Source: a virus (lineage: Duplodnaviria; Heunggongvirae; Uroviricota; Caudoviricetes). Taken from it: DNA of 36,618 nucleotides. Below, piece by piece: positions 21,575 to 30,628 of the stretch. Position 1 is the first letter of the stretch; every line of letters starts with the position of its first letter. The notes beneath the pieces were generated by a model that had not been told where the DNA came from, did not search any database, and worked only from the letters and a program-made list of their open reading frames with translations. Where the stretch lies: IMG/VR virus record IMGVR_UViG_2602041909_000007, one strand, 5' to 3'. The translations under genes were made by a program, and so were the position numbers.

Positions 21575-23362
21575 ATGGCGTATTCTGATGAGGTGATTGC
21601 TGCTGCAAAATCGCTCTATCTGAAAAGGCACACACCAAAAGAAATACAAAAGAAACTCGGACTGAACAGCCCGCGAATTGTTTATTACTGGGCGACAAAG
21701 TTTGAGTGGTACACGCAGCTCAATACGGAAGGTGTGGAGGATGTTATCGCCCGGCGTCTCGCTGTACTGGCGGAGCGTGACCATAAAACGCCGGAAGAAC
21801 ACGATGAACTCGACCGCCTGATTGGTCATCACGTCAAACTAATGTCGGTCAGAAACAAGCACACGGAACGAATGGCTGAGATTGCGCGAATGGGAGTGGA
21901 CATCCCCCAGCCGGGCCGTTATGGAAAAGAAGAACGCGGAGAAAAAGGTGCAGGTAAGAAAGAGCGTCCCCGCAAAACTAATGACGTTTCCGGACTGACT
22001 GCTGAAAGTTTTGAGCCGTTTACGAAGAAGTTGTTTGCTTATCAGTTGCGCCTGCGTGAAAACAAATTCCGCCGTGTACGCAACCTGCTTAAATCCCGTC
22101 AGATTGGGGCGACGTATTACTTCGCGTTTGAGGCGTTTGAAGATGCGGTATTAACCGGCGACACACAGATATTTTTATCGGCATCAAAACGTCAGGCCGA
22201 AGTGTTCCGTACTTATATTGTAAAAATTGCACAAACAGAGTTTGGCATTCCCATTAAAGGCAATCCGGTTAAGTTAAGTAATTTGGCTGAACTGTATTTT
22301 CTGGCGACCAACAGCAACACGGCACAGTCAAACAGCGGCCACCTGTACATTGACGAATACCTGTGGATCCCCGGTTTTCGCCGTCTCAATGAAGTGGCGT
22401 CAGGGATGGCCACCCATAAACACTGGCGCATTACCTATTTCTCCACGCCGTCATCCAAAACACACCAGGGTTATCCGTTCTGGTCTGGCGATGAATGGCG
22501 CAAAGGTGATCCGAAACGAAAAGGGGTTGAGTTTCCGTCCTTTGATGAACTGCGTGATGGCGGGCGCGAATGCCCGGACGGTCAGTGGCGCTATGTGGTT
22601 ACGCTGGAAGATGCCATTGCCGGCGGCTTTAACCTTGCTGACATCAACGAGCTGCGCGAGCGATACAACGAAACAGCGTTCAATATGCTGTTTATGTGTG
22701 TGTTTGTGGATGACAAAGAGAGCGTCTTTAAATTCGATGACCTCGTGCGCTGTGGCGTTGATGTCAGTACGTGGGAGGATTTTCACCCGGAAGAACCCAT
22801 GCCATTTGGTAACCGTGAGGTGTGGGGTGGCTTTGACCCTGCGCGCTCCGGCGATAACGCCACGTTTGTGGTGCTGGCACCGCCGCTGGTTTCGGCAGAA
22901 CGATTCCGCGTGCTGGAAAAACACCACTGGCGCAGTATGTCATTCCAGTTTATGGCAGAGCGTATCCGCAGCATTAAGGCGCGCTATAACATGACATTTA
23001 TCGGCATTGACGTCACCGGTCTTGGCTACGGTGTCTTTGAGCTGGTTCAGGGATTTGCCCGCCGTGAAACAGTGGCCATTCATTACAGCGTTGAATCCAA
23101 AAACCGCCTGGTGATGAAGATGCTGGATCTGATTTACGCCAACCGTATTGAGTGGGATGAAGAAGCCACAGATATTCCGGCATCGTTCCTGGCCATTCGT
23201 CAGGAGTCCACTAACAGTGGCAATAAAGTCACTTTCACCGCCGAACGTAGCGAAAAAACCGGGCACGCAGACATCTTCTTTGCCATAGCTCATGCCGCAA
23301 GTAATGAACCCCTGAACTATAAGCACAAGCGCAAATCAACATGGATCCTGTCAGATGAGTAA
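21575..23362 (+). CDS. P: Terminase large (ATPase) subunit (P2 gpP-like, 595 aa)
   Basis: Size matches P2 gpP (590 aa); divergent from O; followed by portal with overlapping stop/start. Confidence 0.9.
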   Translation: MAYSDEVIAAAKSLYLKRHTPKEIQKKLGLNSPRIVYYWATKFEWYTQLNTEGVEDVIARRLAVLAERDHKTPEEHDELDRLIGHHVKLMSVRNKHTERMAEIARMGVDIPQPGRYGKEERGEKGAGKKERPRKTNDVSGLTAESFEPFTKKLFAYQLRLRENKFRRVRNLLKSRQIGATYYFAFEAFEDAVLTGDTQIFLSASKRQAEVFRTYIVKIAQTEFGIPIKGNPVKLSNLAELYFLATNSNTAQSNSGHLYIDEYLWIPGFRRLNEVASGMATHKHWRITYFSTPSSKTHQGYPFWSGDEWRKGDPKRKGVEFPSFDELRDGGRECPDGQWRYVVTLEDAIAGGFNLADINELRERYNETAFNMLFMCVFVDDKESVFKFDDLVRCGVDVSTWEDFHPEEPMPFGNREVWGGFDPARSGDNATFVVLAPPLVSAERFRVLEKHHWRSMSFQFMAERIRSIKARYNMTFIGIDVTGLGYGVFELVQGFARRETVAIHYSVESKNRLVMKMLDLIYANRIEWDEEATDIPASFLAIRQESTNSGNKVTFTAERSEKTGHADIFFAIAHAASNEPLNYKHKRKSTWILSDE

Positions 23363-24389
23363 AAAGAAAAAATCCCCCGTGCTACACGATGGCGTGGCAA
23401 AAAAAACAGCCAGCAAAATGACGTTTATTGAATTTGGTGACCCGGAACCAGTCGCTGCATGGGGCTGTTATTACGGCTCGCTCTGGGATGGCTATAACGG
23501 CTGGTACACGCCGCCCATTGAGCGCATGGATCTCGCTATGTTGGCCAATATCGCACCGTATCACGGCGCGGTATTGCGTGCGCGCGTCAATATGATCATG
23601 CAGGGTTTTCGGGGGGGCGGTGGTATGACACACGCCGCCATGGCGGCAGCGGTGACCAATCTGCTGATATTCGGGGATATGGGTCTGCTTAAAGTGCGCA
23701 ATGGCTTCGGTCTGGTAGTGCGCCTGCACACACTGCCGTCGCTGTACCTGCGGCGTAACAACGAGGGTGGCACGGTGATTGTGCAGGCGGCACTGGAAGA
23801 TCTCGTTTACCCGCCAGGCGAAGTGGTGTTCGTGGCCATTTATGACCCGCAACAGCAGGTTTACGGTGTACCGGATTATATTCACGGGATGGAATCCGCC
23901 ATGCTGAATGTGGATGCCACCCGCTTTCGCCGCAAGTATTACAAGAACGGCGCACATCTTGGTTATATCCTGTATTCCACTGACCCGGACATGGATCCCG
24001 AGCTCGAGGCGGAATTCCGTAAAAAGATAGAGGCGTCAAAAGGGGCGGGCAATTTTAAATCCATGTTTATCAATATACCGGGCGGAGACAAAGAAGGCGT
24101 TAAGGTGATCCCTATCGGGGATTCAGGTACAAAAGATGAGTTCCTGAATATAAAAACCATCAGTGCCCAGGATCAGCTCGTCGCGCACCGTTTCCCACCC
24201 GGACTTGCCGGCATCATTCCCGCAAATACGGCCGGGCTTGGTGACCCACTGAAATCCCGCGAGGCATATTACAGGGATGAGGTTATCCCGATGCGCCGCC
24301 TGATTATGGAGGGGATCAACAGCGACCCGGATATCAGACGACTGGGGGAGGTGAAATTTATTCTTGATTTTGATGAACCCATGGAGTGA
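23355..24389 (+). CDS. Q: Portal vertex protein (P2 gpQ-like, 344 aa)
   Basis: Exactly the length of P2 gpQ (344 aa); P-then-Q transcription order as in P2. Confidence 0.9.
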   Translation: MSKKKKSPVLHDGVAKKTASKMTFIEFGDPEPVAAWGCYYGSLWDGYNGWYTPPIERMDLAMLANIAPYHGAVLRARVNMIMQGFRGGGGMTHAAMAAAVTNLLIFGDMGLLKVRNGFGLVVRLHTLPSLYLRRNNEGGTVIVQAALEDLVYPPGEVVFVAIYDPQQQVYGVPDYIHGMESAMLNVDATRFRRKYYKNGAHLGYILYSTDPDMDPELEAEFRKKIEASKGAGNFKSMFINIPGGDKEGVKVIPIGDSGTKDEFLNIKTISAQDQLVAHRFPPGLAGIIPANTAGLGDPLKSREAYYRDEVIPMRRLIMEGINSDPDIRRLGEVKFILDFDEPME

Positions 24390-24454
24390 TGTGCGGTATG
24401 GGGAAAGAGCGGGTAAAATCGGTGGCAGTAAAACGCTGTTCCGGGAGGTGGAAA

Positions 24455-24712
24455 ATGCGCAGACAGAAAGCGCGATGTCATTGCTGCGGTGCACATGCAG
24501 TGATTGAGAAAACAGCCTGGAAAACCGATCAGTTTGCTGATGTGTATTACCGTTGCACCCGTCTCGAGTGCGGACATACCTGGGTGATGAATCTGACCTA
24601 CTCGCACACACTGGTGCCCAGCGGGCTGGAGAATGGTGTGTTAAAGCTGTTGATTGAGCGGATGCGTCCGGAAGAAAAACAAATGGCTCTGGAGTTGTTG
24701 CAGGCCGGATAG
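24455..24712 (+). CDS. ogr: Ogr/Delta-family zinc-finger late-gene transcription activator (85 aa)
   Basis: Start at ATG 24455 with GGAGG SD; CHCCGAH…(22 aa)…CTRLECGH matches C-x2-C…C-x4-C zinc finger of P2 Ogr (CPLCQHAAH…CQNVNCSATF). Confidence 0.7.
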   Translation: MRRQKARCHCCGAHAVIEKTAWKTDQFADVYYRCTRLECGHTWVMNLTYSHTLVPSGLENGVLKLLIERMRPEEKQMALELLQAG

Positions 24713-24732: not shown

Positions 24733-24785
24733 AACCCGGAACGGGCGCACAAAGAATTTGCGCACCCGTTCCGGGTTTTCTTATT
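24733..24785 (+). terminator. Strong rho-independent terminator after ogr
   Basis: Long imperfect palindrome CCCGGAACGGGCGC-acaaagaatt-TGCGCACCCGTTCCGGG followed by TTTTCTTATT. Confidence 0.7.
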
Positions 24786-25140
24786 CAATGGCAGACAACT
24801 GATAATTTGTGTCTTCCTGCAGGCTGGTTAAAGAAATATTATCCAGTGCAGCCAGAATAACGTGCTGTGTATATAATCCGGAACATTTCATTGCCCGGAC
24901 AATATCACCAACACTGTAATTTTCTTTTGTCGGGATATATCCACCACCCGGGCCGCGTGTGGCTTTTACCAGGCTACTTTCCCGTAAATATCTGAATATT
25001 TGCTCCAGATATGACAGTGAAACGGTTTCTTTGCTTAATTGCCGGAGTGAGATTGGCTTTCCGGTGTACTGTTTCACAAATTTAATCATTACCATAACTG
25101 CAACTGATGCACGCTGGCTTCCGGAATTATCTTTCATCAT
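24781..25140 (-). CDS. Rrf2-family transcriptional regulator (120 aa)
   Basis: [29 protein letters not shown] closely matches Rrf2/IscR wHTH signature ([29 protein letters not shown]); start set at ATGATG 25140 with SD; no Cys cluster. Confidence 0.8.
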   Translation of the reverse strand: [119 protein letters not shown]

Positions 25141-25151
25141 GATTACTTCCA

Positions 25152-25439
25152 TTAATGGCATAAATTGATGGGGCGGGTCAGTGAATAAAGAGGCAATACA
25201 TTCCATCCCTTAGAGCGCCAGCTGTCTGCAACATCTTTACTTCTTGTTATCGCCGGTATTCCAATAGGATTATTTGCGTGCATCCATGCCACTGGCTCTG
25301 CTTCCAGTGATGCAAGTGCGATTTCCAGTGCGATTAACATATTGTGATCGTCTTCATCAAGACCGAACGGGATGTCTTCGCGCCACGATTTAAACTCTGT
25401 GATTTTACGTTGTAACCATTCTTTGGTAATGGTGGACAT
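25152..25439 (-). CDS. Hypothetical protein (95 aa)
   Basis: ORF with AGGAG SD before ATG at 25439; Trp-rich C-terminal region; no confident family. Confidence 0.45.
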   Translation of the reverse strand: MSTITKEWLQRKITEFKSWREDIPFGLDEDDHNMLIALEIALASLEAEPVAWMHANNPIGIPAITRSKDVADSWRSKGWNVLPLYSLTRPINLCH

Positions 25440-25453
25440 AGTTACTCCTGTTT

Positions 25454-25768
25454 TCACTTCGGGAAAAACGCCTGAATATTCTTTTTCACCTGCTGCATAT
25501 GGGGGGCGCTGTCTGCTGCTGGTTGCGCCGGTTTTTCAGGCTGTACTGGTAGCGGTGGCATCCGTATTTCGTCTTCTGACCATTCTGCCAGCGAATACGC
25601 CAACGCGGGGGTGCGTTTTATAAGAGCCAGTCCAGCCAGAAAAGCCGCGCGTTGTGCGCGGCTGCGTTCGGAGGCTGGCAGGCTGTCGAGGTAACTGCAC
25701 GCCTCCCGTTCGCTCTTGACGACGGCGGGCTTCAGATAGAAACTTATCCGTCTGGTTGGTGTCGTCAT
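25454..25768 (-). CDS. parR: ParR-like centromere-binding adaptor (104 aa)
   Basis: Immediately downstream of parM homolog; LDSLPASERSRAQRAAFLAGLAL resembles R1 ParR (LDSIPQGERSRLNRAALTAGLAL); start at ATG 25768 with AGGAG SD. Confidence 0.7.
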   Translation of the reverse strand: MTTPTRRISFYLKPAVVKSEREACSYLDSLPASERSRAQRAAFLAGLALIKRTPALAYSLAEWSEDEIRMPPLPVQPEKPAQPAADSAPHMQQVKKNIQAFFPK

Positions 25769-25772
25769 TGAT

Positions 25773-26732
25773 TTACTCCTTGTCCATTGCGTACAGCCCA
25801 TTAACCAGAGCAAACTGTGGCACCCCGTCCGCGATGAAAGTCGCATTAACTCCGCAGGCTTCGCGGATAGCGGGTGCCACAATCTCCGCTCCTCCACCTA
25901 CAACCATCACCCGCCCGTAACCCGAAAAAACCGCCAGCGCGCGGATCACGCGTTGTTTCAGTGTTTCCTCCTTTTCACGAATAACTGCCATCAGGCTGGC
26001 GTAATGCGCGTCATTGTGGATGTGCTGGCGCAGCCAGGCTTCATCGTGGCGATGTTCGATAATGGTATTGGCGATGTGGTGACTGGTGCGCATACCGTTG
26101 GTGGCCATCACCGACAGCACGGCATCGGCCATCAGAGAAACGCCTACGTGTGGATCGCAAAACACCTGGCTGATACCTGCCAGTTGCCCCTGAACCTTTG
26201 CCACATCCAGCGTGGTTCCGCCCAAATCCACAATCAGCAGGGATTCAAACGGACTCATGTCAGCCAGTGCCTTAAAACCAGCCGGAATGGATTCAGGCAT
26301 AACCCGCACGTTACGGATAGTGAATGCCTCGCCGTTCTGGTACTCCACCGGGCGCATAACGTTCGCTTTTTTGCGGTTGATGTTGGCCATGTCCGGCTGT
26401 GCGTTTGTGTCGAAATACTCGCTCAGTGGCAGGGTAACAACCACATCCACTTCCTGTGGTGTGATGCCTGATTTGACCAGCGCGTGGTGAATGGCGATTA
26501 CATTCACATCGCTGTACTGGTATTGCGTGTCGGTCGTCTGGACAAAGCGATCGCTGACCGGATCAAAACCATAGCGCACGCCATCAAGCATGTAGTTCGC
26601 GGGCTGCGTGCCACCGAACGGCGCAGACCATTCCGACTTGAAGCTGTTCGGGCTGATGGCGTTGCGGCGTTCGCCGTTCTCAGTCCATGCCAGCTTGATG
26701 TTGGTGGAGCCGTCGTCGATACAAATTTTCAT
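25773..26732 (-). CDS. parM: ParM/StbA-family actin-like segregation ATPase (319 aa)
   Basis: Near-colinear similarity to plasmid R1 ParM as recalled: IDDGSTNIKL, ISPNSFK, YSDVNV.A.HHAL, VMPESIPAG, DLGGTTLD, GGGAE, LVNG.Y. Confidence 0.9.
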   Translation of the reverse strand: MKICIDDGSTNIKLAWTENGERRNAISPNSFKSEWSAPFGGTQPANYMLDGVRYGFDPVSDRFVQTTDTQYQYSDVNVIAIHHALVKSGITPQEVDVVVTLPLSEYFDTNAQPDMANINRKKANVMRPVEYQNGEAFTIRNVRVMPESIPAGFKALADMSPFESLLIVDLGGTTLDVAKVQGQLAGISQVFCDPHVGVSLMADAVLSVMATNGMRTSHHIANTIIEHRHDEAWLRQHIHNDAHYASLMAVIREKEETLKQRVIRALAVFSGYGRVMVVGGGAEIVAPAIREACGVNATFIADGVPQFALVNGLYAMDKE

Positions 26733-26763
26733 GTCGCTTTTCCTTATGTTGATTAATTAATCG

Positions 26764-26876
26764 TTTACGGGATTTTTAAATCCCGTTTTCGCCTGTTTTG
26801 TGCGCGCTTCATATATCGCGGCGCGTTTTTTGCTCATTTACGGGATTTGTGAATCCCGTTTCTGTCTGTTTTTTGT
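26764..26876. repeat. Two ~38-bp direct repeats each containing palindrome ACGGGATTT(n)AAATCCCGT; candidate parC-like centromere / ParR binding sites
   Basis: tttacgggatttttaaatcccgtttt (26764-26789) and tttacgggatttgtgaatcccgtttc (26838-26863); first copy is intergenic upstream of parM, second lies in the last ~20 codons of the gpA-like ORF. Confidence 0.4.
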
Positions 26877-29631
26877 TTCTACTGGTCAGGCCACCCCGCA
26901 GCAGGTCTGCTTTGCGGCGGGCGCGTTCAGTTGTTTCACTGATTCTCTGTGCGTGCTCTGCGTCACGGATGGCGCGCAGCATGTCAGAAAGCACGGTAAC
27001 GGGGGTTTTCATGGTGTTCTGGTCCTGCTGAAGTGTGGATGCCAGACGTGCGGCGGCTTCGGGGTCTGATGCCCCCAGCTGTGCCAGATAGCTGGCGACC
27101 GGGTTATGGCGGATCTCCGTGCTGCTTACGCCGTGATTACGGCTCAGGTGCTGCCAGAGCTGCGTGATTCGGCTGTCCGGGCGGGTATCCGGTTTGCGTA
27201 CAATTTCAAATCCCTGTGGTGCAATGATGCTGCCGTCAACGTACAGGCTGCCGCCCCGTAACAGGTGCTGCATCTGCTGTTCACCGATATGCAGGCCGAG
27301 AGATTCGGCAGATTCCCGCCATTCTTTAGCGAGTAATTCGTGGTTATCAGGCAAAGGCCGTGGCTGTTTGCGGCTCTGTGTCCAGTTCTGCATTTCATCA
27401 CTGCTGTTTTTTGCCTGCTTGTCACGCAGCGAACGCATCAGAGCCCGGCGTTCGTGCCGTTTCAGTGAGCGCATCCATTCGTTCACTTCAACGCCGTCAG
27501 GGAGCTGCGGCCACGGTGCTGGCCGTTCTTTCGGCTGTTCTGTCCCGTTGTTGTCCGTTTCCTGTACACGGGGACAGTTATTGCCACGAGTCCAAGGGGC
27601 GGCAGGGCCGCCCTGAAGGTCAAAACCATTTTCGCGGGCGCTGTCTTCCGCTTCCGGTTTACGTCTTACCAGCTTCCAGTTATCCGGATGTGTGCACACA
27701 CGGGAAGACTCCCCGATGAGTGGTGACCAGATCCCGTAAATCTGTACGCTCTGTTCGCCGTAATCGTTCAGCTCATCTGCGAGGTCGTAGGCGGTGCGAA
27801 TCAGGTAGTCTTTGCGTGGAACAAGTACGCCGCCCTGTTTTTCAATGTAGGAGGCAAAACACCCGGCATCAGCGGCAGCGAGCACTGCATCCATTGCGTC
27901 ATCCTTCAGCCGTTGCGGGCCTTCCGGGTTGCGTGCCATCTGGCTGGCAAGGCGGCGCAGTTCACGCCACACCTGACGGGAGGGGATGCCAAAGAACTGG
28001 AACTGGCGGACCCGGTGAAGGCGCGCCCAGCCGATGGCGCGCTCCACGCTCTCGGCCATTGATTTTCCGGTTTCGTGGTCAACGCGTGGCTTGCCCGTTT
28101 TCGGGTCGATACCATCCACGGCGCGGCTGTCCAGGTTCTTTCCGATGTAGGTGGCGATGTAGCTGGTTGGCGTGCCTTTTGAGCCGTCGACGTACTCCGC
28201 TTTAAAACGCGGAGTTATGTCATCGCCCAGCTCGTGGCGGTCTTCCTGAATGGCAATATCGCAGACGTGGGACACGATGGTTTCAATCTCGTCCGGATGT
28301 GCAAAGACCATCATATGCCAGTGCACAGTGCCGTCATGGTGAGGCTCCACCGTGCGGATGCCATACCAGCGAAGACCGTCGCGGTTCAGTTTTTTGCGGA
28401 CCGCCGCAAAAAACGTGTTAACCAGGTAATCGCTGGAGTCGCGCATGGTGGCCCCGTTCCATTTGGGATTCGGATGACCGTTCTCCGTTGTTGCGTGGTA
28501 TTTTGACGGGCAGGTGACAGTCAGAAACACCGCTCTGTCGCCACGGGCTTCGGCCAGAAGTTCCAGCCCCTTCATGGTGGCCATCATTTCTGCCTTACGG
28601 TGAACCGGGTTACTTACTCCCGCGTAATACACCGTCTCGAGATCAATCGTGAACCCGTCTTCATTTTCCAGCATGAAACTTTTCAGGAAATCGCGTGTTT
28701 TCTCGCGCTGTGCGCGAAACTCGCTTAATGCGTCCTGGCTCAGATAGGGCGATGTTTTTCTGGAAACCAGACAGGCGGCGCGGAGTTGTTCTTCTCTCCA
28801 CTCGCAACGTAACAGCCACAGTTTGCGTTTCCACCATTCCGCACAGGTCAGGCGAAGGACTGCGCCCGGCAGCAGCTCCGTGTCCGGTTCGTTCCTCCGG
28901 TCTTTATCTGTTGTCAGTGCGTCATAATGTGGAGGCATGATGTGCAGGTGTAACGCCATGCGGGCCAGCATCTGATACGTCTTCAGCGTTACATCCATGG
29001 TCAGTTCGCCATCGGTCGCGCCAAAGCCATCGCAGAGTTTTTCGAAGGTGCTGCTGAACATCGCCGCCGTCATGGTGGCCAGCGTCTGTATCTGGTGTTT
29101 GTTGAGCTGCGGCAGGTAAAGCAAATCGTCCAGGCGTTCGCGTCCGGCAAGGGAGCGATAACCCGGTGTCAGCCAGCGTCCGTCAGTGCGATCCAGACGT
29201 TCGAATATTTTGCGCAGGGTTCCGCGTGCATAGCGTTCCGCCTGCCAGCTCTTTTTGCCTTTCCGGCGATCGGCTTCCTGTTTTTTGCGCAGGAAGGAGA
29301 GGTGGCGAATAAGCGGATCGCGCAGATAGGACGGCAGCAGGCGCAGCGAGGCCATGGCTTCATCCACCGCGCCGCGTGCCTGTTTTCTGGCGTCTCCTGC
29401 CAGTGTGATGGTTTTGTCCTGTTTTTCCTGTGCATCCAGGCTTTTATTAATCAGGTTGCCCAGCGGCGTGGCGGAGAACGCCGCATCAGCCTTTTCCTGT
29501 CGGCGCTCGTTCTCTGCCCGGTAGGCATCCAGCCAGGAGGAAAGCGCGGATTCAGGTGCGGGGATCCCCGTTCCTTCACGCCCCACTGCGTGGCGCGGTT
29601 GTTGCCAGTCCCTGATGTACTCTGTCGTCAT
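26809..29631 (-). CDS. A: Replication initiation endonuclease (P2 gpA-like HUH rolling-circle initiator, 940 aa)
   Basis: HUH-type motif TVHWHMMVF and catalytic-Tyr region TSYIATYIGKNLD; position in early operon upstream of head genes as in P2; ~180 aa longer than P2 gpA. Confidence 0.8.
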   Translation of the reverse strand: MTTEYIRDWQQPRHAVGREGTGIPAPESALSSWLDAYRAENERRQEKADAAFSATPLGNLINKSLDAQEKQDKTITLAGDARKQARGAVDEAMASLRLLPSYLRDPLIRHLSFLRKKQEADRRKGKKSWQAERYARGTLRKIFERLDRTDGRWLTPGYRSLAGRERLDDLLYLPQLNKHQIQTLATMTAAMFSSTFEKLCDGFGATDGELTMDVTLKTYQMLARMALHLHIMPPHYDALTTDKDRRNEPDTELLPGAVLRLTCAEWWKRKLWLLRCEWREEQLRAACLVSRKTSPYLSQDALSEFRAQREKTRDFLKSFMLENEDGFTIDLETVYYAGVSNPVHRKAEMMATMKGLELLAEARGDRAVFLTVTCPSKYHATTENGHPNPKWNGATMRDSSDYLVNTFFAAVRKKLNRDGLRWYGIRTVEPHHDGTVHWHMMVFAHPDEIETIVSHVCDIAIQEDRHELGDDITPRFKAEYVDGSKGTPTSYIATYIGKNLDSRAVDGIDPKTGKPRVDHETGKSMAESVERAIGWARLHRVRQFQFFGIPSRQVWRELRRLASQMARNPEGPQRLKDDAMDAVLAAADAGCFASYIEKQGGVLVPRKDYLIRTAYDLADELNDYGEQSVQIYGIWSPLIGESSRVCTHPDNWKLVRRKPEAEDSARENGFDLQGGPAAPWTRGNNCPRVQETDNNGTEQPKERPAPWPQLPDGVEVNEWMRSLKRHERRALMRSLRDKQAKNSSDEMQNWTQSRKQPRPLPDNHELLAKEWRESAESLGLHIGEQQMQHLLRGGSLYVDGSIIAPQGFEIVRKPDTRPDSRITQLWQHLSRNHGVSSTEIRHNPVASYLAQLGASDPEAAARLASTLQQDQNTMKTPVTVLSDMLRAIRDAEHAQRISETTERARRKADLLRGGLTSRNKKQTETGFTNPVNEQKTRRDI

Positions 29632-30309: not shown

Positions 30310-30540
30310 GTGGTCTCTGTAGTTGCAAGTTTTGAAAACTCACCATCCAGAGGTTGCAATTCTGGGTGGCGAGGCGTATGGGGTTGCAACCACCGGCAAC
30401 TACAGAAACCGGCCCGACCGAAGTCGGCCCCATGCGCCCCACCATAATTCGTGTGCGAAAAAGACGTGGCGATACGGTACGCACAAAAAAACCGCTGGCG
30501 CGGTTGTGCGCTGTAGTTGTCAGCGGGGGTTGCAATCCCG
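30310..30540. promoter_or_regulatory. Non-coding region with four GGTTGCAA palindromic motifs and an internal minus-strand terminator
   Basis: GTTGCAA at ~30322, 30353, 30383 (spacing ~31 and ~30 bp) and ~30529; hairpin CCGC-tggc-GCGG with 8-T run on minus strand at ~30483-30505. Confidence 0.45.
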
Positions 30541-30628
30541 GCACCCGTTTTATGGGGTGCAGCGGAAATGTAACCTGATTGATTGCGGCAGGGCAAGCGG
30601 TTTTTTTGTGTGTGCATGTTCTGGTTTC

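Follow-up and report, generated by a model that had tools for sequence, protein, structure and literature searches.

Paired palindromic repeats as a candidate ParR operator/centromere in the parM–parR cassette of P2-like prophages

Introduction

The element described here is a pair of palindrome-containing repeats upstream of the parM gene in a P2-like prophage (IMG/VR record IMGVR_UViG_2602041909_000007), analyzed over its full length of 36,618 nucleotides, which we call the window. Its closest described counterparts are the centromeres of the R1-type plasmid partition systems. Centromeres of this type, type II, consist of tandem repeats upstream of the partition operon, either continuous or split (PMC5016525). 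In plasmid R1, the 159-bp parC comprises ten 11-bp iterons in two groups of five, separated by a promoter region of 39 bp, and takes up approximately one ParR dimer per iteron (PMC2241845), and the C-terminal tail of ParR is the region that binds ParM (PMC5016525). The pSK41 centromere has continuous 20-bp repeats, bound by two ribbon-helix-helix dimers (a dimer of dimers) at 10-bp sub-repeats (PMC5016525). Published ParR–parC complexes contain about 10–12 dimers (PMC2241845, PMC5016525). For two other ribbon-helix-helix centromere proteins, omega and ParG, it makes no difference to binding whether the repeats are inverted or direct (PMC5016525).

Among integrated prophages, CGP3 of Corynebacterium glutamicum offers the nearest functional parallel to a partition-like machine of this kind. 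It has been described as having an actin-like protein, AlpC, and a DNA-binding adaptor, AlpA, which binds specific alpS sites; the system was likened to ParMRS, and efficient replication of the viral DNA depends on it (PMC4446434, PMC5539076). The CGP3 proteins belong to another actin-like family, with another adaptor and another host, whereas the prophage in the window has true R1-type ParM and ParR proteins.

The parM–parR cassette itself had been noticed before. In 2022, Rousset et al. described a 'putative plasmid partitioning system' in the gpA–gpQ hotspot of about a quarter of P2-like phages, and speculated that it might allow plasmid maintenance (PMC9122126). This is the same cassette in the same place, and its reported prevalence agrees with the 1371 of 5426 complete Escherichia coli genomes found here. 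In its passages on the cassette, that paper deals with the genes only and mentions no cis site (PMC9122126).

Paired palindromic repeats upstream of parM

The parM gene (25773..26732, minus strand) encodes an actin-like ATPase of 319 residues with Pfam matches to StbA_N (1.8e-82) and the ParM C-terminal domain (6.3e-69), and is preceded by the ribosome-binding site AAGGAA (26740–26745). Between 29 and 143 bp upstream of its start codon (26732) lies a pair of 42-nt direct repeats, also on the minus strand: a proximal copy at 26761–26802, TCGTTTACGGGATTTTTAAATCCCGTTTTCGCCTGTTTTGTG, and a distal copy at 26834–26875, TCATTTACGGGATTTGTGAATCCCGTTTCTGTCTGTTTTTTG, which forms the 5' edge of the cassette. 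The copies are 83% identical. The original prediction, made from the sequence of the window, had placed two repeats of ~38 bp here, 74 bp apart; the repeats are indeed present, but their length is 42 nt and their measured start-to-start spacing is 73 bp.

Each copy contains a 20-bp palindrome with 8-bp arms, ACGGGATT-N4-AATCCCGT, which reads ACGGGATT-TTTA-AATCCCGT in the proximal copy (26767–26786) and ACGGGATT-TGTG-AATCCCGT in the distal copy (26840–26859). A palindrome of this kind consists of two inverted 8-bp half-sites with their centers 12 bp apart. It occurs twice in the 36.6-kb window when up to 3 mismatches are allowed, compared with 0.11 expected occurrences, and none of 100 shuffled sequences contained two. 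Scattered single half-sites are found elsewhere in the window.

The 31-bp spacer between the repeats (26803–26833) holds the gpA stop codon (26809–26811) and a third, GC-rich hairpin at ~26802–26831 with a T6 run on the plus strand, which had not been predicted originally. Two diverged spacer alleles were found, ..CGCGATATATGAAG.. and ..CCATAAAACATGAAG... In addition, an AT-rich perfect 12-bp palindrome, GATTAATTAATC (26751–26762), is placed between this spacer-proximal pair of repeats and parM, after the proximal copy and ahead of the ribosome-binding site. This smaller palindrome has an allele, GGTTAATTAACC, in loci L008, L009, L010, L012 and L067, in which both sides are changed and the symmetry is kept; one-sided intermediates also occur. 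The surrounding sequence ACGATTAATT also resembles the high-affinity motif of H-NS.

The repeats travel with parM–parR

A 700-bp region covering the junction was searched in 5426 complete E. coli genomes and was present in 1371 of them (~25%). Carriers include O157:H7 Sakai (prophage Sp13; NC_002695.2, ~2,602,000–2,602,700), EDL933, O104:H4, ST131 and O127:H6 (E2348/69), and the locus was chromosomally integrated in 1531 of 1533 places. The cassette genes are routinely annotated; in Sakai Sp13, parM appears as stbA.

Upstream of the cassette lies gpA (29631..26809, minus strand), encoding 940 residues with a Pfam Phage_GPA match at 1.9e-129. Its TGA stop codon (26811–26809) falls between the two repeats, and translation runs through the distal repeat, which supplies the last ~22 gpA codons (...KKQTETGFTNPVNEQKTRRDI*), close to the ~20 codons of overlap predicted originally. 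To which of the two genes the repeats belong was resolved by comparing relatives. Three loci (L089, L090 and L091) have the same gpA with other cargo in place of parMR: an AAA ATPase with a Dam methylase, an S8 peptidase with an AAA ATPase, or hypothetical genes. In these, gpA is 93–95% identical up to ~26909–26925 ('...TERARRKA') and then diverged, ending in three unrelated short tails, and there is no trace of the palindromes. In three other loci (L049, L088 and L136), other genes precede parM–parR. Both repeats are there, and the outer boundary of the distal repeat, ~26873–26875, is exactly where homology begins. Since gpA relatives occur without the repeats, parMR behind other genes occurs with them, and the cargo after parR differs among carriers, the mobile unit is, by these comparisons, [two repeats–parM–parR], and the repeats belong to the parMR cassette and not to gpA. 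The original prediction would have been undermined by phages that lack parMR and retain the repeats, and the three gpA relatives do not retain them. A P2-type replication origin or another gpA-associated element was rejected on the same absence.

The C-terminal tail of gpA (26812..26912, minus strand, ~33 codons) consists of junction and cassette DNA that is read through. Frameshifted tails were present in ~12 of ~110 haplotypes and are evidently tolerated, so the tail is free of coding constraint. The C-terminal extension of gpA had been proposed to be in part read-through of regulatory DNA. This holds for the last ~33 codons, which are swapped in the gpA-only relatives, but not for the C-terminal stretch of ~230 residues, which has no DNA-level match in P2-like phages outside the P88 group and of which most is kept whatever the cargo and is true gpA. 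As judged from these alignments, recombination in the hotspot has its junction at the 3' end of gpA, where each cargo type supplies its own short tail. Annotated gpA lengths therefore vary for trivial reasons, and the last ~33 codons of the 940-residue 'replication endonuclease' are a matter of annotation, being cassette DNA and not gpA.

R1-type ParM and ParR proteins

The parR gene (25454..25768, minus strand) encodes 104 residues with a Pfam match to PF10784 (4.4e-24). ParM matched the R1 ParM structure 1MWK at 8e-93, and a ParR profile matched the ribbon-helix-helix region of the pB171 ParR structure 2JD3 at E = 9e-4. By these matches the two are genuine R1-type proteins. ParM was at least 98% identical in nearly all relatives, and the DNA of the locus differs by ~5%. 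Within parM, nucleotide diversity was 0.057 at third codon positions versus 0.003–0.005 at positions 1 and 2, a difference that indicates strong purifying selection on the protein.

A search of IMG/VR with ParM returned 249 relatives, of which 80 loci, 99–100% identical, were kept; GTDB representative genomes contained only 2 loci, both 98% identical. No ParM of intermediate identity was found, either at 48–95% in the phage collection or at 52–99% in the plasmid collection. One 226-kb contig with the cassette, L086 (NZ_JBQPOM010000071.1), is assigned to 'Vagococcus sp. WN89Y' and encodes a ParM 98% identical to the E. coli version; it is likely contamination or a mislabelled enterobacterial contig.

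The N-terminal region of ParR is of the ribbon-helix-helix type; a hypervariable linker connects it to the conserved tail at the C-terminus, KKNIQAFFPK. Its alleles are 45–93% identical overall, with the variation confined to the Pro/Gln-rich linker (residues ~65–92). The N-terminal strand RRISFYLKP is invariant, and the helices that follow it and the C-terminal KNIQxxFP tail are kept across alleles. The tail sequence KKNIQAFFP resembles the tails of plasmid ParRs (R1-like KKNAMKLIN). As a weak hint only, a low-confidence model of the monomer (mean predicted local distance difference test score of 61) was helical as far as residue 60 and then disordered, with a further helix at the C-terminus. 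The linker has thus diversified among cassettes that are otherwise nearly identical. The cargo that follows parR differs among P88, the window, L088 and NZ_CP148288, and because the genes after parR vary, ParR is the sole DNA-binding protein that is constant in the cassette.

Comparison with plasmid centromeres

The locus shares several properties with R1 parC. Both elements lie directly upstream of parM–parR, and both are split into two blocks, of 2 × 55 bp around 39 bp in R1 and of 2 × 42 bp around 31 bp here. The sense strand is A-rich in both, and the protein partners are homologous: ParM through its match to 1MWK, and ParR through PF10784 and its similar C-terminal tail. The position of the repeats, directly upstream of a genuine R1-type parM–parR pair, is that of R1 parC, as had been predicted. 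The internal build differs. R1 parC has ten 11-bp direct iterons and a central promoter, whereas the prophage element has two 20-bp palindromes, amounting to four inverted half-sites. The proteins have diverged as well, and the phage ParM is at most 52% identical to any ParM in the plasmid collection.

The closest plasmid ParMs, at 52% identity, are those of the IncL/M and IncF plasmids pSL264 and p4_4.2 (L002 and L003). These plasmids have the same operon order and a comparable ParR β-strand, NRKCSFYIYP, to be set beside TRRISFYLKP in the phage. Their upstream regions contain clear 10-bp iterons (GTATTTTTCT-like, autocorrelation z = 4.1–4.4) and, by eye, −35-like (TTTACA/TTTACC) and −10-like (TAATAAT/TGATAAT) hexamers between the iteron blocks, whereas the phage region has neither. 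In pSK41, going by its published description, the unit of ~20 bp is comparable to one 20-bp palindrome of the prophage; however, the contiguous direct repeats of pSK41 build a superhelical array, while the two palindromes here are isolated from each other, 73 bp apart.

Specificity and variation among haplotypes

A scan of IMG/VR for the palindrome returned at least 120 loci; among the matches listed, five were unrelated chance hairpins and the others were copies of this cassette, in some cases truncated at a contig end. A blastn search of the plasmid collection gave six prophage-bearing records and one 22-bp chance match. An interspersed repeat family was rejected, since outside the cassette only unrelated chance hairpins appeared among the IMG/VR matches listed. 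Among 77 distinct upstream haplotypes, both copies were present in 72 in the gpA context and in 3 in other contexts. One copy was found in L110, where it adjoins a truncated parM. The palindromes are separated by 73 bp in nearly every locus; one among the matches listed has 72 bp.

The centers of the palindromes are hypervariable, with a nucleotide diversity (π) of 0.17, and the arms are mostly kept across haplotypes. In two haplotypes a rare substitution is found twice: L049 has ACAGGATT in both palindromes, and in L078 the two copies are altered at the same right-arm position, a pattern suggestive of gene conversion between them. ParR alleles and palindrome alleles were not associated, the haplotypes being shuffled. 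This negative result is uninformative and was to be expected, because the recognition strand of ParR is invariant; a half-site core is likewise common to all ParR alleles, and the invariant RRISFYLKP strand fits it.

A candidate ParR operator/centromere

We favor, with moderate confidence, the reading that the repeats are a candidate ParR operator/centromere, the cis-acting 5' control region of a mobile parM–parR cassette. ParR would be the binder, as the only DNA-binding protein that is constant in the cassette. Co-inheritance with parMR is indirect evidence of sequence-specific binding by ParR. The system itself appears functional, given the selection on ParM, the plasmid-like tail of ParR and the presence of the locus in so many genomes. 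To function, ParM and ParR require a site on the DNA, and within the [repeats–parM–parR] unit no repeated or symmetric elements other than these palindromes are present, which makes them the candidate; downstream of parR and inside the genes, a search for an alternative centromere found no repeats beyond chance-level pairs. Half-site centers in ribbon-helix-helix operators lie 7–12 bp apart, and the 12 bp measured here is within that range. The repeats are also located within 150 bp directly upstream of parM, as in the parC regions of R1 and pSK41 (PMC2241845, PMC5016525).

The proposed mechanism operates in the gpA–gpQ variable hotspot of a P2-like prophage with a P88/Xuanwuvirus-like replication region. 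ParR, through its ribbon-helix-helix domain, would bind each palindrome as a dimer of dimers, probably with one dimer on each of the 8-bp arms. The 73-bp spacing corresponds to ~7 helical turns and would put both palindromes on the same face of the DNA, where the two complexes might cooperate or loop out the 31-bp spacer. The complex would repress transcription of parMR, in an autoregulatory manner, and would present the conserved C-terminal tails of ParR to ParM filaments. In this way the repeats could serve the phage genome, when excised or replicating, as a small centromere akin to parC. A more specific version, that this is a minimal palindromic bipartite centromere and a new type II architecture, is one that we put forward only tentatively and consider rather doubtful. 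In it, a trimmed ParR would assemble as two tetramers along one face of the DNA and link the P2-like phage genome, excised or in replication, to filaments of ParM.

Several observations weigh against the operator/centromere reading. By autocorrelation, the regions upstream of four plasmid parM genes, used as parC comparators, have the expected 10- or 11-bp self-similarity (z = 3.9, 4.1, 4.4 and 2.8), whereas the phage region scored −0.6 for a period of 10 bp and 0.8 for one of 11 bp. Tandem Repeats Finder reported nothing in the region, no half-sites beyond the four perfect ones were found at up to 2 mismatches, and the phasing of A-tracts was not significant (170 of 1000 shuffles were as good, p ~0.17). 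A consensus scan and a hexamer scan found no sigma-70 consensus promoter in the spacer or nearby. The best promoter-like match, TTTAAA-17-ATTAAT (8/12), lies downstream of the spacer, with its first hexamer in the variable center of the proximal palindrome. The phage ParR, at 104 residues compared with 116–147 for plasmid ParRs, has an alignment gap at the helical region that follows the ribbon-helix-helix domain; it appears to be without this region, so the same array may not form. One haplotype, L021, has a single hybrid repeat, the product of a 73-bp deletion between the copies, with parM and parR intact. Diversity in the palindrome arms (π = 0.056) shows no extra conservation relative to synonymous sites (0.057–0.071), and the proportion of segregating sites is 20% in the palindromes versus 26–33% at third codon positions; at such shallow divergence, constraint on the arms is not demonstrable from these alignments. 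Lastly, a literature search found no published account of a cis site for this cassette.

The resemblance to R1 parC that had been predicted therefore extends to position but not to build: there is no 10–11-bp tandem periodicity, there are four half-sites only, and there is no sigma-70-like promoter. As an iteron array is lacking, we do not class the region as an R1-type parC; it occupies the place of parC and may work alike.

Alternative explanations

One alternative, which we consider unlikely, is that the two palindromes and the central GC-rich hairpin are three tandem intrinsic terminators on the plus strand, insulating the replication operon from antisense transcription that comes from the cargo side. 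All three hairpins are followed by T-runs on that strand, the distal palindrome was flagged by a terminator scan, and the plus-strand RNA fold is stable (−42.6 kcal/mol, z = −3.9). The original prediction had described this orientation, and T-rich runs do follow each palindrome on the plus strand only. It had also stated that no plus-strand gene reads into the repeats, and this was confirmed. The terminase (21575–23362), portal (23355–24389) and Ogr/Delta-like (24386–24712) genes form a plus-strand unit that terminates ~2 kb from the repeats, at a strong inverted repeat (24733–24777; 21-nt arms, 90% complementary, 3-nt loop). This hairpin is located between the convergent ogr-like (plus) and Rrf2-like (minus) genes and is probably a bidirectional terminator that ends both units. 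No plus-strand gene was found between 24712 and 26760, so the repeats do not lie at the 3' end of a plus-strand unit and no such unit reads toward them; nor is there a plus-strand promoter upstream. Furthermore, the single match from the terminator scan is below the shuffle mean of 1.3, and the minus strand folds about equally well (z = −4.1), so the fold is a property of the palindromes and not of one strand. Common haplotypes (the AATCCTGT allele) put A–C mismatches in the plus-strand stem. Terminators need no common sequence, whereas two of these hairpins have identical 8-bp arms and conserved flanks, and an A-rich sense strand is typical of R1-type parC as well.

A different objection accepts ParR as the binder and denies the centromere: the repeats would be ParR operators for autoregulation only, in a cassette that no longer partitions and whose ParM has been kept for some other role in the prophage. 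With four half-sites, the element is closer to an operator pair of the Arc, Mnt or CopG type than to a segrosome array. The near-universal chromosomal integration (1531 of 1533 places) makes a centromere not obviously needed, and the hotspot is, in the passages of Rousset et al. on it, otherwise filled with defence systems (PMC9122126). Nevertheless, neither ParM nor ParR matched any PADLOC defence model, and one full P88-like genome with parMR has been deposited as a circular 34.5-kb plasmid. The strong purifying selection on ParM speaks against this explanation too, as does the conservation in all ParR alleles of the tail that binds ParM in R1 (PMC5016525), next to a linker that is free to vary. 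We regard this explanation as improbable.

It is quite unlikely that the repeats are RNA hairpins in the minus-sense gpA–parM transcript, acting in processing, stability or parM translation, with no protein that recognizes the DNA sequence. parM is without a recognizable promoter and, in every context seen, lies behind gpA or another open reading frame (ORF) oriented alike, which makes transcripts that read through likely; the minus-sense fold has the z-score of −4.1 given above, and some arm substitutions result in minus-sense G–U pairs. However, other common substitutions (the GGGACT allele) are mismatched in the minus sense and form G–U pairs in the plus sense, and neither strand is consistently favored. 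The arm substitutions are single transitions that make G–U pairs on either strand inconsistently, and no compensatory double changes were seen among the haplotypes; taken together, these patterns give no support to an RNA structure on either strand. The repeat region had no Rfam match, even at E = 1 or below, and the hairpins are 35–130 nt from the ribosome-binding site, which stays unsequestered.

Equally, there is little probability that a single palindromic site was duplicated locally and that the repeats are its neutral remnant, with no present function: repeat diversity does equal that of synonymous sites, and L021 has lost one copy with its genes intact, but nearly all haplotypes, and three independent genomic contexts, keep both copies at the fixed 73-bp spacing, the repeat ends where the cassette ends, and a total divergence of ~5%, with 32 sites, gives low power to detect constraint.

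Genomic context of the cassette

Downstream of parR, the window carries a 101-residue ORF (25152–25457, minus strand; PHROG 660/60) and the Rrf2-family regulator-like gene (24781–25206, minus strand) as cargo. The segment with the replication genes and parMR shares 93–98% identity with Xuanwuvirus (P2-like) phages, Escherichia phage P88 among them. At most 3% of the late, structural part (window 1–25000) is covered at ≥85% identity by records of the phage collection, P88-like or other. Since the late part is without a close DNA match and the replication/parMR part resembles P88 so closely, the prophage is, on this comparison, a mosaic.

The early region contains two matches above the Rfam gathering score, both on the minus strand: a C4 antisense RNA at 30362–30449 (76.8 bits) and isrK at 30485–30560 (61.3 bits). 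They adjoin a gene that is labelled 'derepression protein' in P88. C4 is the immunity RNA of phages P1 and P7.

The circular record mentioned above, NZ_CP148288.1 (L212), is a full P88-like genome of 34,461 bp with integrase, parMR and the repeats; its entry describes it as a 'plasmid' of E. coli Z1323PEC0009, circular and non-mobilizable. It could represent an episomal state or induced phage; this single record is compatible with an episome.

Implications

Until binding or partition has been shown, nothing in these findings would surprise a specialist. If ParR does not work through the palindromes, the repeats would be an ordinary operator or a structural by-product. If, on the other hand, two isolated palindromes suffice, it would follow that nucleation of an actin-type segrosome can do with a much smaller number of specific sites than R1 or pSK41 has. 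The cassette is present in ~25% of complete E. coli genomes and is evidently selected, and the candidate site makes its role in the integrated prophage testable. If the bipartite centromere were to prove real, about a quarter of E. coli P2-like prophages could persist or be positioned as episomes.

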